DNA of 4,524 bases from a virus (Duplodnaviria; Heunggongvirae; Uroviricota; Caudoviricetes). A model generated the notes under the pieces. The model was not told the DNA's origin. It saw only the letters and a list, made by a program, of their open reading frames with translations, and did no database searches. The stretch lies in IMG/VR virus record IMGVR_UViG_2693429700_000009; one strand, 5' to 3'. A program made the translations under genes and the position numbers. Shown here one piece after another: positions 1 to 4,524 of this stretch. How positions within the stretch are numbered: position 1 is the first letter of the stretch; each line of letters opens with the position of its first letter.

Positions 1-561
1 GAGATTGTGGCGCTGGTCCACAGCCACCCCGGTGGTCTGCCCTGGCTGAGTGAGGCCGACCGGCGGCTGCAGGTGCAGAGTGATTTGCCGTGGTGGCTGG
101 TCTGCCGGGGTGAGATTCATAAGTTCCGCTGTGTGCCGCATCTCACCGGGCGGCGCTTTGAGCACGGTGTGACGGACTGTTACACACTGTTCCGGGATGC
201 TTATCATCTGGCGGAGATTGAGATGCCGGATTTTGTGCGTGAGGATGACTGGTGGCGTAACGGTCAGAATCTCTATCTGGATAATCTGGAGGCCACAGGG
301 CTGTATCAGGTGCCGTTGTCAGCGGCGCAGCCGGGCGATGTGCTGCTGTGCTGTTTTGGTTCATCGGTGCCGAATCACGCCGCTATTTACTGTGGTGACG
401 GCGAGCTGCTGCACCATATTCCTGAACAACTGAGTAAACGGGAGAGGTATACCGACAAATGGCAGCGACGCACACACTCCCTCTGGCGTCACCGGGAATG
501 GCACGCATCTGCCTTTACGGGGATTTGCAACGATTTGGCCGCCGCATCGACCTTCGTGTGA
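1..561 (+). CDS. K: Tail tip assembly protein K (gpK-like; JAMM/MPN metallopeptidase motif plus NlpC/P60 cysteine peptidase domain); 5'-partial, true start lies upstream of the window
   Basis: Frame 1 is open from nt 1 to the TGA at 559-561. Translation begins EIVALVHSHPGGLPWLSEAD, which fits the JAMM motif HxHx7SxxD (His codons 19-21 and 25-27, Ser 49-51, Asp 58-60). Downstream are NlpC/P60-type candidate catalytic residues: Cys in HGVTDCYTLF (178-180), His in VPNHAAIY (376-378) and His-His in ELLHHIP (412-417). The sequence matches lambda gpK from memory. The ORF-track start at nt 7 (GTG) is a window-edge artefact. Confidence 0.9.
   Translation, partial: EIVALVHSHPGGLPWLSEADRRLQVQSDLPWWLVCRGEIHKFRCVPHLTGRRFEHGVTDCYTLFRDAYHLAEIEMPDFVREDDWWRNGQNLYLDNLEATGLYQVPLSAAQPGDVLLCCFGSSVPNHAAIYCGDGELLHHIPEQLSKRERYTDKWQRRTHSLWRHREWHASAFTGICNDLAAASTFV
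441..447 (+). promoter_or_regulatory. Shine-Dalgarno-like element for gene I, embedded in the K coding sequence
   Basis: GGAGAGG at 441-447, 11 nt upstream of the I ATG (459). The spacing is slightly long but acceptable, and translational coupling to K is plausible. Confidence 0.5.
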
Positions 562-1130
562 AAACGGGGGCTGAAGCCATCCGCGCACTGGCCACACAGC
601 TCCCGGCGTTTCGTCAGAAACTGAGCGACGGCTGGTATCAGGTACGGATTGCCGGGCGGGACGTCAGCGCGTCCGGGTTAACGGCGCAGTTACATGAGAC
701 TCTGCCTGATGGCGCTGTGATTCATATTGTTCCCAGAGTCGCCGGGGCCAAGTCAGGTGGCGTATTCCAGATTGTCCTGGGGGCTGCCGCCATTGCCGGA
801 TCATTCTTTACCGCCGGAGCCACCCTTGCAGCATGGGGGGCAGCCATTGGGGCCGGTGGTATGACCGGCATCCTGTTTTCTCTCGGTGCCAGTATGGTGC
901 TCGGTGGTGTGGCGCAGATGCTGGCACCGAAAGCCAGAACTCCCCGTACACAGACAACGGATAACGGTAAGCAGAACACCTATTTCTCCTCACTGGATAA
1001 CATGGTTGCCCAGGGCAATGTTCTGCCTGTTCTGTACGGGGAAATGCGCGTGGGGTCTCGCGTGGTTTCTCAGGAGATCAGCACGGCAGACGAAGGGGAC
1101 GGTGGTCAGGTTGTGGTGATTGGTCGCTGA
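459..1130 (+). CDS. I: Tail tip assembly protein I (gpI-like; N-terminal ubiquitin-like/beta-grasp region, Gly-Gly junction, Gly/Ala-rich hydrophobic segment, conserved C-terminal region)
   Basis: ATG at 459 to TGA at 1128-1130, 223 codons. The protein begins MAATHTLPLASPGMARICLYGDLQRFGRRIDL and ends QVVVIGR, which is near-identical to lambda gpI as I recall it (also 223 aa). It overlaps the K 3' end by 103 nt in a different frame, as in lambda. An SD-like GGAGAGG lies at 441-447. Confidence 0.92.
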   Translation: MAATHTLPLASPGMARICLYGDLQRFGRRIDLRVKTGAEAIRALATQLPAFRQKLSDGWYQVRIAGRDVSASGLTAQLHETLPDGAVIHIVPRVAGAKSGGVFQIVLGAAAIAGSFFTAGATLAAWGAAIGAGGMTGILFSLGASMVLGGVAQMLAPKARTPRTQTTDNGKQNTYFSSLDNMVAQGNVLPVLYGEMRVGSRVVSQEISTADEGDGGQVVVIGR

Positions 1131-1148
1131 TGCAAAATGTTTTATGTG

Positions 1149-1169
1149 AAACCGCCTGCGGGCGGTTTT
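1149..1169 (+). terminator. Candidate stem-loop with 3' T-run in the I-J spacer (possible intrinsic terminator, attenuator or RNA stability element; function unproven)
   Basis: AAACCGCC (1149-1156), loop TGCG (1157-1160), GGCGGTTT (1161-1168) form a perfect 8-bp stem with a GC-rich core, followed by T at 1169. It starts 19 nt after the I stop and ends 22 nt before the J start. In a Q-antiterminated late operon it would be read through. Confidence 0.35.
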
Positions 1170-1178
1170 GTCGTTTAT

Positions 1179-1182
1179 GGAG
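1179..1182 (+). promoter_or_regulatory. Shine-Dalgarno element for gene J
   Basis: GGAG at 1179-1182 with an 8-nt spacer to the ATG at 1191. A second GAGGA at 1186-1190 abuts the start codon and is too close to act as the SD. Confidence 0.6.
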
Positions 1183-1190
1183 CGTGAGGA

Positions 1191-4100
1191 ATGGGTAAAG
1201 GCAGCAGTAAGGGGCATACCCCGCGCGAAGCGAAGGACAACCTGAAGTCCACGCAGCTGCTGAGTGTGATCGATGCCATCAGTGAAGGGCCGGTTGAAGG
1301 TCCGGTGGATGGATTAAAAAGCGTGCTGCTGAACAGTACGCCGGTGCTGGACAGTGAGGGGAATACCAACATCTCCGGCGTCACGGTGGTGTTCCGGGCA
1401 GGTGAGCAGGAGCAGACACCGCCGGAAGGTTTTGAATCCTCCGGCTCCGAGACGGTGCTGGGTACGGAAGTGAAATATGACACGCCGATCACCCGCACCA
1501 TCACGTCGGCAAACATCGACCGTCTGCGCTTTACCTTCGGTGTGCAGGCACTGGTGGAAACCACCTCAAAGGGGGACCGGAATCCGTCGGAAGTCCGCCT
1601 GCTGGTTCAGATACAGCGTAACGGTGGCTGGGTGACGGAAAAAGACATCACCATTAAGGGCAAAACCACCTCGCAGTATCTGGCCTCGGTGGTGGATAAC
1701 CTGCCGCCGCGCCCGTTTAATATCCGGATGCGCAGGATGACGCCGGACAGCACCACAGACCAGCTGCAGAACAAAACGCTCTGGTCGTCATACACCGAAA
1801 TCATCGATGTGAAACAGTGCTACCCGAACACGGCACTGGTCGGCGTACAGGTGGACTCGGAGCAGTTCGGCAGCCAGCAGGTGAGTCGTAATTATCATCT
1901 TCGCGGGCGCATTCTGCAGGTGCCGTCGAACTATAACCCGCAGACGCGACAATACAGCGGTATCTGGGACGGAACGTTAAAACCGGCATACAGCAACAAC
2001 ATGGCCTGGTGTCTGTGGGATATGCTGACCCACCCGCGCTACGGCATGGGGAAACGTCTTGGTGCGGCGGATGTGGACAAATGGGCGCTGTATGTCATCG
2101 GCCAGTACTGCGACCAGTCAGTGCCGGACGGCTCTGGCGGCACGGAGCCGCGCATCACCTGTAATGCGTACCTGACCACACAGCGCAAGGCGTGGGATGT
2201 GCTCAGTGATTTCTGCTCGGCGATGCGCTGTATGCCGGTATGGAACGGGCAGACGCTGACGTTCGTGCAGGACCGACCGTCGGATAAGGTGTGGACCTAT
2301 AACCGCAGTAATGTGGTGATGCCGGATGATGGCGCGCCGTTCCGCTACAGCTTCAGCGCCCTGAAGGACCGCCATAATGCCGTTGAGGTGAACTGGATTG
2401 ACCCGAATAACGGCTGGGAGACGGCGACAGAGCTTGTGGAGGACACGCAGGCCATTGCCCGTTACGGTCGTAACGTCACGAAGATGGATGCCTTTGGCTG
2501 TACCAGCCGGGGGCAGGCACACCGCGCCGGGCTGTGGCTGATTAAAACAGAACTGCTGGAAACGCAGACCGTGGACTTCAGCGTGGGTGCCGAAGGGCTT
2601 CGCCATGTGCCGGGCGATGTCATTGAAATCTGCGATGATGACTATGCCGGTATCCGCACCGGCGGGCGCGTGCTGGCGGTAAACAGCCAGACCCGGACGC
2701 TGACGCTCGACCGTGAAATCACGCTGCCAGCCTCCGGCACCACGCTGATAAGCCTGGTTGACGGGCAGGGGAGTCCGGTCAGCGTGGAGGTTCAGTCCGT
2801 CACCGACGGCGTGAAGGTGAAAGTGAGCCGTGTTCCTGACGGCGTTGCTGAATACAGCGTATGGGGGCTGAAGCTGCCGACGTTGCGCCAGCGCCTGTTC
2901 CGCTGCGTGAGTATCCGTGAGAACGACGACGGCACGTATGCCATCACCGCCGTGCAGCATGTACCGGAAAAAGAGGCCATCGTGGATAACGGGGCGCACT
3001 TTGACGGCGACCAGAGCGGCACGGTAAATGGTGTCACGCCGCCAGCGGTGCAGCACCTGACCGCCGAAGTCACCGCAGACAGCGGGGAATATCAGGTGCT
3101 GGCGCGCTGGGACACACCGAAGGTGGTGAAGGGGGTGAGCTTCCTGCTTCGCCTGACCGTGGCAGCGGATGACGGCAGTGAGCGGCTGGTCAGCACGGCC
3201 CGGACGGCGGAAACCACATACCGCTTCACACAACTGGCGCTGGGGAACTACAGGCTGACAGTCCGGGCGGTAAATGCGTGGGGACAGCAGGGCGATCCGG
3301 CATCGGTATCGTTCCGGATTGCCGCCCCGGCAGCGCCTGTCACTATTGAACTGATACCGGGGTATTTTCAGATAACGGCGGTCCCGAAACTGGCTGTATA
3401 TGACCCGACGGTACAGTTTGAGTTCTGGTTCTCGGAAAAGCGGATTACCGATATCAGGCAGGTTGAAACCACAGCCCGCTATCTTGGTACGGCGCTGTAC
3501 TGGATAGCCGCCAGTATCAATATCAAACCGGGCCATGATTATTACTTTTATATCCGCAGTGTGAACACCGTTGGTAAATCGGCATTCGTGGAGGCTGTCG
3601 GTCAGCCGAGTGATGATGCATCAGGCTATCTGGATTTTTTCAAAGGAGAGATAGGGAAAACCCATCTGGCTCAGGAGTTGTGGACGCAGATTGATAACGG
3701 TCAGCTTGCGCCTGACCTGGCTGAAATCAGGACGTCCATTACGGATGTCAGCAATGAAATCACGCAGACCGTCAATAAGAAACTGGAAGACCAGAGTGCG
3801 GCAATTCAGCAGATACAGAAGGTTCAGGTTGATACAAATAATAACCTGAACAGCATGTGGGCTGTGAAGCTGCAGCAGATGCAGGACGGACGCCTTTATA
3901 TCGCGGGTATTGGTGCCGGTATTGAGAACACCTCTGACGGCATGCAGAGTCAGGTGCTGCTGGCGGCGGACAGGATTGCGATGGTTAATCCTGCGAATGG
4001 CAACACAAAACCGATGTTTGTTGGTCAGGGCGATCAGATATTCATGAACGACGTGTTCCTGAAACGCCTGACGGCCCCCACCATTACCAGCGGTGGAAAT

Positions 4101-4524
4101 CCACCGGCATTTTCCCTGACACCGGACGGAAAGCTGACCGCTAAAAATGCGGATATCAGTGGCAGTGTGAATGCGAACGCCGGGACGCTCAACAATGTCA
4201 CGATTAACGAGAACTGTCGGGTTCTGGGAAAACTGTCCGCGAACCAGATTGAAGGCGATCTCGTTAAAACAGTGGGCAAAGCTTTCCCCCGGGACTCCCG
4301 TGCACCGGAACGGTGGCCATCAGGGACCATTACCGTCAGGGTTTATGACGATCAGCCGTTTGACCGGCAGATTGTTATTCCGGCGGTGGCATTCAGCGGC
4401 GCTAAACATGAGAGAGAGCATACTGATATTTACTCCTCATGCCGTCTGATAGTGCGGAAAAACGGTGCTGAAATTTATAACCGTACCGCGCTGGATAATA
4501 CGCTGATTTACAGTGGCGTTATTG
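1191..4524 (+). CDS. J: Tail tip host-specificity protein J (gpJ-like central tail fibre); 3'-partial, runs off the window end after about 1111 codons
   Basis: ATG at 1191 is preceded by GGAG at 1179-1182 with an 8-nt spacer. I translated the frame codon by codon to nt 4523 and found no stop. The N-terminus [34 protein letters not shown] and long internal stretches (for example [45 protein letters not shown] and [46 protein letters not shown]) match lambda gpJ from memory. Lambda J is about 1132 aa, so only a short C-terminal piece is missing. The ORF is absent from the supplied track, presumably because it has no in-window stop. Confidence 0.95.

Follow-up and report, generated by a model that had tools for sequence, protein, structure and literature searches.

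Modular exchange of the C-terminus of gene J is textbook lambdoid biology; phage lambda binds LamB and phage 434 uses OmpC. [quoted passage not shown] The AHS and fibre domain names used here are taken from that work. Across 1,207 homologues, J residues 960-1132 behave as an independently recombining module, the 'specificity region', in which lambda residues 1048-1049 form an indel hotspot hypothesised to be a surface loop (Maddamsetti et al., Evolution 2018, PMC6646904). The same study noted nested indels outside this region 'of unknown consequence'; it did not characterise a shaft-length polymorphism or address GC content. The C-termini 1A2 and A8, once joined to lambda gpJ at residue 964, allow DNA delivery to cells lacking lamB, and delivery by both chimeras is OmpC-dependent and specific to the OmpC variant, 1A2 failing on K-12 OmpC (Brodel et al., Nature 2024, PMC11338833). 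The native receptor of phage 21 is LamB, OmpC being gained through a single mutation, and receptor use moves among LamB, OmpC and OmpF by single mutations (PMC11336670).

Here we describe a window of 4,524 nt (the whole stretch of DNA that was analysed, from the Caudoviricetes record IMGVR_UViG_2693429700_000009). The region of interest is best explained as the last third of J, here an ordinary gene of the lambda type carried by an E. coli prophage, a reading that we consider, as a whole, highly probable. RBD-module exchange is already documented, and the 1A2-type RBD has already been characterised and exploited; in this respect the finding is an ordinary one.

Gene order and domain architecture

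The window opens within gene K, which encodes the tail-tip assembly protein with an NlpC/P60 peptidase domain (Pfam NLPC_P60, E = 1.7e-12). Its 3' part occupies 1..561 on the plus strand, cut by the 5' end of the window; it lines up collinearly with residues 14-199 of lambda K at 95.9% ungapped DNA identity. K is in an open frame already at nt 1, and the start suggested at nt 7 arises only from the way the ORF was listed. Gene I (459..1130, plus strand), encoding the 223-residue tail assembly protein I (Pfam Lambda_tail_I, E = 3e-28), overlaps the end of K as it does in lambda. In the spacer between I and J, a hairpin folds well; a pattern scanner found no terminator there.

Gene J, encoding the tip attachment protein or central tail fibre, starts with the ATG at 1191 and stays open to the end of the window (1191..4524, plus strand). 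The window holds 1111 of its codons, and about 48 are missing at the 3' end, judged from relatives with a 1159-residue J. Six gpJ Pfam domains are found in lambda's order (FNIII-A, Phage-tail_3 forming the hub, Ig_J, Ig_J_second, Phage_Tail_Tip and Ig_GpJ_C), with E-values between 1.5e-43 and 1.3e-20. Ig_GpJ_C is cut at profile position 85 of 135, so that most of the receptor-binding region is present (profile positions 1-85), and not merely its start as the earlier note had assumed. The hub and first Ig/FNIII domain (1191..3329, plus strand; FNIII-A at residues 86-206, Phage-tail_3 at 329-497 and Ig_J at 609-713) are GC-rich, with a GC of 0.606 and a GC3 of 0.745. The second Ig/FNIII domain, FNIII-2 (3333..3641, plus strand; Ig_J_second at residues 715-817, E = 1.6e-38), opens the lower-GC part.

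Among PDB entries, solved gpJ structures match best: a phmmer search with AUSMDU J as proxy retrieved 8iyk_J with E = 0 and 2183 bits. The genomic context agrees, with K and I upstream of J in the window and lom and stf following J in PhiR46_1 and AUSMDU; the downstream context was read from these closest relatives, the window itself ending within J. Compared to lambda gpJ, the protein shares the K-I-J position, the domain order, 90-100% identity over residues 1-810 and 93-97% over residues ~940-1000. It differs in total length (~1159 residues versus 1132), in its shaft, which is 28 residues longer, and in two DNA blocks encoding shaft and RBD.

A GC step shared by lambda-type J genes

GC content falls sharply within J. 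Sliding-window values of 0.62-0.66 over 2500-3300 give way to 0.48-0.52 over 3300-4000, and the best single change-point lies at nt 3342 (codon 718), where GC drops from 0.606 to 0.508 (60.6% to 50.8%). The log-likelihood gain at this point is 14.8, compared with a maximum of 8.5 among 500 codon shuffles, none of which (0/500) reached the observed value; a Mann-Whitney test on the GC of 60-nt lines upstream versus downstream gave p = 8e-7. The earlier note had located a fall near 3350 from hand counts, and its counts are exact: 70.0, 61.7 and 65.0% for the GC-rich lines at 2641, 2701 and 3121, and 43.3, 45.0, 43.3 and 46.7% for those at 3601, 3721, 3781 and 4441. The change-point is positioned 9 nt past the start of Ig_J_second (3333), at the boundary between FNIII-1 and FNIII-2 (residue ~715).

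The step is common to lambda and to every lambda-type J examined. Lambda J steps at codon 726 (0.593 to 0.532), AUSMDU J likewise has its change-point at codon 726, and, besides lambda's, 11 lambda-type J genes step at the equivalent codon. It is also seen in all 10 aligned J genes, some from lineages only 45-83% identical upstream. The step is therefore older than the divergence of these genes. Window and lambda are 85-94% identical in DNA across it, and because lambda carries the same step at the same place, the drop provides no evidence for an exchange. An imported cassette of foreign GC would bring a step that is missing from lambda and that coincides with a loss of identity; we found neither.

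It is conceivable that the step carries no history and reflects only the amino-acid and codon needs of the fibre domains (an Ig fold, a helical shaft rich in Gln, Asn, Lys, Ile and Thr, and a beta-prism) as opposed to those of the hub. Amino-acid composition alone predicts a fall from 0.606 to 0.566, accounting for ~40% of the drop, and the change falls exactly on a domain boundary. In contrast, codon choice accounts for the remaining ~60%, and with GC3 declining from 0.745 to 0.574 the change is mostly synonymous. Moreover, the distant J homologues of SPN3UB, mEpX2, phi80 and T1 have the same overall architecture but lack a sharp step at the corresponding site, and it is the hub (0.60-0.66) and genes K and I (0.59-0.60) whose GC is elevated, the distal value of ~0.51 not being unusually low. 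We thus regard a purely compositional origin as unlikely. Because those four homologues lack the step, we also reject it as something inherent in the J fold. A GC of ~51% is near the E. coli genome average. We tentatively favour the view that the step may be an old junction where a GC-rich hub lineage was joined to a fibre segment of ~51% GC, bearing in mind the share of the drop that stems from amino-acid composition. The locus offers a worked example of a sharp intragenic GC step that does not mark a recent swap, the reference phage sharing it and the true junctions lying elsewhere.

Mosaic blocks in the distal third of J

A short variant patch (3330..3410, plus strand) coincides with the GC change-point at the FNIII-1/FNIII-2 boundary. 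It matches 10 of 12 reference J genes at only 72-75% identity, and PhiR5_1 and Stx2a_2409 at 84-86%. The patch is a minority natural allele: it recurs at 95-99% identity in 252 E. coli records, with 92.8% in the best sequenced phage. In VT1-Sakai J, identity to the window jumps from ~65% to ~95% at this site, around 3400.

Downstream of the patch, pairwise alignment to lambda J resolves four blocks of alternating similarity, with 92% DNA identity over 3411-3641 (91.8%), 46% over 3642-4010, 93% over 4011-4200 and 52% from 4201 to the end. The two divergent blocks (3642-4010 and 4201-4523) make up ~58% of the distal third. The suggestion that the distal third diverges from lambda thus holds for these two blocks and fails for 3411-3641. 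The pattern that would have spoken against the proposal of the earlier note, uniform GC with near-identity to lambda throughout J, was not seen: the step is real and two blocks diverge. The statement that lambda differs here while sharing a flank was also accurate, with 45.8% DNA identity over 3642-4010 and 92.6% over 4011-4200. The shared flank is the lower central straight fibre (4011..4200, plus strand), which lies between both variable blocks, contains a 69-nt exact run against lambda at 4110-4178 and harbours the peptide FMNDVF...VNAN quoted in the earlier note, found at residues 951-996 (nt 4041-4178).

The shaft and RBD blocks are common natural alleles separated by ~190 conserved nucleotides. 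All four combinations exist: the long shaft with the 1A2-type RBD (the window and AUSMDU), the short shaft with the same RBD (2G7b, whose J has 3396 nt), the long shaft with another RBD (phage 21, Chlobot and STEC1575) and the short shaft with another RBD (lambda and 434). The two blocks therefore assort independently. The incongruence runs in both directions. In the RBD, the window groups with 2G7b, PhiR5_1 and Stx2a_2409 (98-99%), whose upstream blocks are only 45-65% identical; conversely, upstream identity reaches 95-99% for phage 21, Chlobot and STEC1575, compared with 51-58% in the RBD. Phage 21 J carries the window's long shaft allele at 97.0% and an RBD with 57% DNA identity to the window's, and 434 J carries lambda's short shaft and an RBD with 51%. 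Both of these RBDs are unlike those of the window and of lambda, and both genes are block-wise mosaics as the window is.

To locate the host-range junction, two observations converge. Many phages match the window from nt 1 to 4217, 4287 or 4291 and then stop, and lambda residue 964, the graft point of the A8 and 1A2 chimeras, maps to nt ~4161. The junction is therefore near 4150-4290, with the GC step lying some 800 nt further upstream. The start of the 'specificity region' of lambda (residues 960-1132) matches this left boundary, and that region corresponds to the right-hand divergent block of the window, with independent inheritance in both cases. An exchanged host-range module, as the earlier note proposed, is accordingly supported in so far as J is a mosaic and its RBD is another allele than lambda's; the module begins near 4200, however, and not at 3350.

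These data bear on the proposal that everything from ~3350 to the end is one imported lower-GC host-range cassette, with the GC step as its left junction. GC does fall at 3342, the patch at 3330-3410 is unusual in the window, and the jump in VT1-Sakai is a true mosaic junction, so this site can serve as a recombination joint in the family. Against a single cassette, lambda and all other lambda-type J genes carry the step at the same codon, the two stretches with 91.8 and 92.6% identity to lambda do not belong to one foreign piece, the shaft and RBD blocks assort independently, and the segment sufficient for host range begins only at lambda residue 964 (PMC11338833). We consider a single import highly improbable. 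Separate best hits for the two parts of J, another expectation, were not obtained: PhiR55_1 ranks first or close to first for each, and the entire window is matched in one piece by E. coli prophages at 98.2%.

For the independently assorting blocks, the lower fibre (4011-4200) is likely a substrate for homologous crossover. The blocks would be swapped by homologous recombination in their conserved flanks, among the several lambdoid prophages that each E. coli genome carries; the median number of J-bearing places per E. coli genome is 3.

The receptor-binding block and the predicted receptor

The receptor-binding block (4201..4524, plus strand) is of the gpJ-1A2 type, for which the predicted receptor is OmpC; its Ig_GpJ_C match begins at nt 4272 (E = 1.3e-20). 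Over 4201-4523 it shows 51.7% DNA identity to lambda and 97.8-100% to 2G7b, PhiR5_1, Stx2a_2409, VT1-Sakai and AUSMDU. The gpJ-1A2 sequence was taken from machine-read text containing indels and was aligned by a frameshift-tolerant protein-versus-DNA method. In this alignment, 113 of 122 readable residues of the window are identical to published gpJ-1A2 (92.6%); at four window positions the text cannot be read, and genuine differences may be among the 9 mismatches. The full-length proxy AUSMDU reaches 157 of 168 (93.5%), compared with 46.5% for lambda and 65.5% for phage 21 as controls. Plain tblastn against the machine-read text was discarded, as the OCR indels break the frame and yield misleading identities of 50-70%. 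Most mismatches adjoin such indels. The few probable substitutions are of the kind S/N, A/S and R/K, and a likely real difference is HEREH versus HEKEH, at about lambda residues 1048-1049. The likeness runs from the NADISG motif to the end of the window. gpJ-1A2 is itself an engineered chimera that joins a natural E. coli prophage C-terminus to lambda's short shaft in recoded DNA.

Since the RBD is ~93% identical at readable positions to gpJ-1A2, which was shown to use OmpC, a receptor other than LamB is likely, as the earlier note had suspected. On this similarity, we infer that the phage adsorbs through OmpC (EDL933-type variants) and not through LamB. The last ~48 codons of the RBD lie beyond the window; their identity is predicted from relatives 98-100% identical to the window end, and the missing C-terminus of J would be expected to read ...IDMPAGHGHMTLEFSVSAWLVN(D/N)WYPTASISDLLVVVMKKATAGI(S/T)IS.

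The receptor cannot be read from similarity alone, because the phage 21 RBD is equally far from lambda's and yet uses LamB. Continued use of LamB, or of another non-OmpC receptor, would fit with the phage 21 domain having only ~57% DNA identity to the window's, with the ease by which single mutations move receptor use among LamB, OmpC and OmpF (PMC11336670), and with the window differing from 1A2 at a few positions and lacking its last 48 residues. On the other hand, the comparison is with a C-terminus that was tested in lamB and ompC deletion backgrounds (PMC11338833), and most of the mismatches to it sit beside OCR indels. The isolation hosts are weak evidence in the same direction: those named among the 57 phage records with a 1A2-type RBD are ECOR13, E. 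coli C and O157/O55, with K-12 in none, which fits the failure of 1A2 on K-12 OmpC. We consider this alternative quite improbable and retain the prediction of OmpC. A receptor-prediction preprint covers Drexlerviridae-type GpJ and says nothing about the 1A2-type RBD.

The same RBD type is found in 3,376 of 5,426 complete E. coli genomes. The OmpC (EDL933-type) prediction thus concerns a J allele present in ~62% of them, including O157/O55 Stx-converting prophages. Binding to OmpC would be expected to trigger shaft flipping and hub opening as described for lambda.

Two common shaft lengths

The left divergent block (3642..4010, plus strand) encodes the AHS and the upper central straight fibre in a 'long' allele. 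It is 93-99.7% identical to phage 21, AUSMDU, 640R1, Chlobot and others, and its shaft exceeds lambda's by 28 codons, with 84 nt (63 + 21) absent from lambda. The 28 extra residues equal four heptads, or roughly 4 nm of helix. Residues 842-899 contain no Pro or Gly and show a 3.6-residue periodicity, and a single-sequence AF2 model features a helix at residues 844-893 with pLDDT 80-91. Only positions with pLDDT > 80 were used, as the model of residues 794-940 has a mean pLDDT of 63 and over-extends the helix into lambda's beta-prism. Pfam Phage_Tail_Tip spans residues 871-999. The segment described as coiled-coil-like in the earlier note, with the peptide LAEIRT...GRLY found at residues 843-903 (nt 3717-3899), is thus assigned to the shaft that transmits the receptor signal; rather than being part of the host-range module, it belongs to a separately assorting shaft allele.

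We searched for an origin of the longer shaft by internal duplication and found no tandem repeat. A first alignment of 10 sequences had made lambda appear as the shaft outlier, an impression refuted by the broader survey, in which 85 phage records and 2,649 genomes have the short shaft, and 65 phage records and 3,552 of the 5,426 complete E. coli genomes have the long one. The shaft indel may match one of the nested indels reported by Maddamsetti et al. (PMC6646904).

It is tempting to speculate that the length polymorphism is a maintained functional dimorphism and not neutral mosaicism. The shaft flips and partly refolds, relaying receptor binding to the hub, so its length could determine how far the fibre extends through O-antigen or capsule, or the threshold at which DNA ejection is triggered. 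Separately, the GC step at codon ~715 could date back to an ancient fusion that joined a fibre cassette to a GC-rich hub gene. Taken jointly, we put these suggestions forward tentatively and consider them doubtful. Each of the two shaft forms is present in about half or more of the complete E. coli genomes, and both lengths are therefore common in nature.

Architecture of the tail-tip region

Three genes are present in the window, all on the plus strand. The 3′ part of K (nt 1–561) is open in frame from nt 1, matches lambda K residues 14–199 and carries the Pfam domain NlpC/P60, and I (nt 459–1130) matches Pfam Lambda_tail_I. J, encoding the lambda-type tip attachment protein gpJ (central tail fibre), starts at an ATG at nt 1191 and runs past the 3′ end of the window, giving 1,111 codons; J is 1,159 aa long in the nearest complete relatives, which implies that about 48 codons lie beyond the window. 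The gpJ series of Pfam domains is complete: FNIII-A (aa 86–206), Phage-tail_3 (aa 329–497), Ig_J (aa 609–713), Ig_J_second (aa 715–817), Phage_Tail_Tip (aa 871–999) and Ig_GpJ_C (aa 1028–1109, profile positions 1–85 of 135). Among 5,426 complete E. coli genomes, the best match covers the whole window in one piece at 98.2% identity, and 4,661 contain matches, at a median of three places per genome. The tail-tip region in the window is ordinary for a lambdoid prophage. Relative to lambda, E. coli AUSMDU00014361 and other J genes, a one-codon deletion lies at J aa ~141–199 (window ~1610–1790), and window residue numbers therefore run one behind those of lambda from there on.

The GC step is an old trait of lambda-type J genes

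The earlier note had described a drop in GC in distal J, and its hand counts on 60-nt lines proved exact when recomputed. In sliding windows, GC is 0.62–0.66 at nt 2500–3300 and 0.48–0.52 at nt 3300–4000. A two-segment likelihood scan of J split the gene at nt 3342 (codon 718), 9 nt into the second Ig/FNIII domain, which begins at nt 3333, with a gain of 14.8 log units that exceeded all 500 codon shuffles (maximum 8.5). Across this point GC falls from 0.606 to 0.508 and GC3 from 0.745 to 0.574. Encoding the same downstream residues with the codon preferences of the upstream part gave an expected GC of 0.566, which attributes ~40% of the drop to amino-acid composition and ~60% to codon choice. 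It is the upstream GC that is elevated (hub 0.60–0.66, K and I 0.59–0.60); the distal third, at ~0.51, is not unusually low.

The step does not set the window phage apart from lambda. Codon-aligned lambda J falls from 0.62–0.66 to 0.47–0.52 over the same columns, where the two genes share 85–94% DNA identity, and the change-point lies at codon 726 in both lambda J and the J of AUSMDU00014361, the closest E. coli prophage. All ten J genes of our first alignment have the step, including those of VT1-Sakai and Stx2a_2409, whose sequences before the step share just 45–83% identity with the window. This rules out a recent import in the window phage. Four distant homologues (SPN3UB, mEpX2, phi80 and T1; 34–42% protein identity in the hub) lack a sharp step at the equivalent position, which rules out a general property of the J fold. 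We conclude that the GC step is an old trait common to the lambda-type J lineage.

At family level, the boundary placed by the earlier note at ~3350 retains some meaning. The patch at nt 3330–3410, in the FNIII-1/FNIII-2 linker, is 72–75% identical to most relatives and unlike 10 of 12 reference J genes; PhiR5_1 and Stx2a_2409 come nearest (84–86%), and the linker peptide differs from that of lambda. The patch is a minority natural allele, found at 95–99% identity in 252 E. coli records (best sequenced phage, 92.8%). At the same site, the identity of VT1-Sakai to the window switches from ~65% to ~95%. Together, these indicate that the FNIII-1/FNIII-2 boundary can serve as a junction between mosaic segments in the J family, not as a point of difference between the window and lambda.

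Two divergent blocks assort independently

Protein identity to lambda is 90–100% up to ~aa 810, 12–55% over ~aa 820–930, 93–97% over ~aa 940–1000 and 30–57% beyond. Divergence is thus confined to two blocks of the distal third. FNIII-2 (nt 3411–3641) retains 91.8% DNA identity, whereas the alpha-helical shaft with the upper fibre (nt 3642–4010) is 45.8% identical and includes 84 nt absent from lambda, in agreement with the earlier note, in which lambda differs in a coiled-coil-like segment. The lower fibre (nt 4011–4200) is again 92.6% identical, with a 69-nt exact run at 4110–4178; the block given in the earlier note as common with lambda (…VNAN, nt 4041–4178) falls here. The receptor-binding block (nt 4201–4523) is 51.7% identical.

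The window shaft is 28 residues (four heptads) longer than that of lambda. It contains a Pro/Gly-free run (aa 842–899) with a hydrophobic periodicity of 3.6 residues, and a single-sequence AF2 model, unreliable elsewhere, has a helix at aa 844–893 (pLDDT 80–91). No tandem DNA repeat was found in the longer shaft, which rules out a recent duplication. Long shafts occur in 65 phage records and 3,552 of the 5,426 genomes, short ones (lambda, 434, HK630, Stx1a and Stx2c phages) in 85 and 2,649, and the window-type receptor-binding domain (RBD) in 57 and 3,376; both divergent blocks are common alleles. In lambda gpJ, LamB binding makes the lambda shaft flip and its C-terminal part (lambda 841–861) refold into beta-strands, releasing the FNIII strings and opening the hub (PMC11101478). 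The common two-length polymorphism of this signal-transmitting element is the least ordinary feature left.

Aligning 13 J genes showed every one of the four shaft–RBD combinations: long with 1A2-type RBD (window, AUSMDU00014361), long with another RBD (21, Chlobot, STEC1575), short with 1A2-type (2G7b; J 3,396 nt) and short with another (lambda, 434). PhiR5_1 and Stx2a_2409 carry a third shaft allele, likewise joined to a 1A2-type RBD. This is four-gamete evidence of recombination between the blocks, which assort independently; the coiled-coil block is an allele in its own right, outside the host-range module. Crossovers would most readily occur in the conserved lower fibre. In many phages the match to the window begins at nt 1 and breaks off at 4217, 4287 or 4291, placing host-range junctions there. 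A host-range module exchanged relative to lambda exists as proposed, with its start ~800 nt past the GC step; the initial observation is confirmed and its interpretation partly supported. Everything found agrees with known lambdoid biology. A study of 1,207 natural homologues had already shown that J residues 960–1132 form an independently circulating module, and it also noted nested indels elsewhere in J (Maddamsetti et al., PMC6646904).

OmpC is the predicted receptor

Two natural prophage gpJ C-termini, A8 and 1A2, have been fused to lambda gpJ at residue 964, and the chimeras deliver DNA into lamB-deleted cells via OmpC; 1A2 is functional on the EDL933 OmpC variant and not on K-12 OmpC (Brodel et al., PMC11338833). 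The published 1A2 sequence (supplement) is recoded and was machine-read with indels, making plain tblastn misleading, and we therefore used frameshift-tolerant alignment restricted to readable residues. The window is identical to 1A2 at 113 of 122 readable residues (92.6%), whereas lambda reaches 46.5% and phage 21 65.5%, and mismatches mostly adjoin OCR indels. Lambda residue 964 corresponds to window nt ~4161; the window thus holds the left end of the segment that sufficed in those experiments. This similarity predicts OmpC as the receptor, from an RBD without its last 48 residues (outside the window), and makes the earlier suggestion of a receptor other than LamB likely. Caution also applies because phage 21 natively uses LamB despite a comparably divergent domain, and one mutation adds OmpC (PMC11336670).

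In supplementary file 10 of PMC11338833 (Extended Data Fig. 2 source data), the 1A2 and A8 values of Panel C (OmpC-EDL933) equal those of Panel B (OmpC-MG1655), which suggests that one panel was duplicated in the file or during its extraction. [quoted passage not shown] 8.

Additional observations

The closest full-length relative of J (AUSMDU00014361; NZ_CP045827.1, 3724473–3740998) lies within a prophage undergoing decay. Its annotation gives frameshifts in H, L, K and I, and an IS1203 element breaks the side-tail-fibre gene; J is intact. A short way downstream are nleG and nleA, which encode type III effectors. MW057783.1, 'Campylobacter phage CJLB-4' (48,361 bp), shows 100% identity to the 257-nt shaft block of lambda, located at lambda-like coordinates; the record may represent lambda itself, or contamination by it, rather than a Campylobacter phage. 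A 472-aa antisense ORF on the minus strand (2118–3536) covers the GC-rich, hub-encoding part of J and ends shortly past the GC fall. Rather than being a gene, it most likely arises from high sense-strand GC3. The I–J spacer (1131–1190) contains a GC-rich hairpin, AAACCGCC-TGCG-GGCGGTTT followed by TTTTGTCGTTT (1144–1174), with a folding energy of −16.1 kcal/mol (z = −3.8 versus shuffles). A pattern scanner made no terminator call on it, and the phage 21 and 434 records annotate a terminator at the homologous spot. The hairpin could be a terminator with an attenuating role between I and J.
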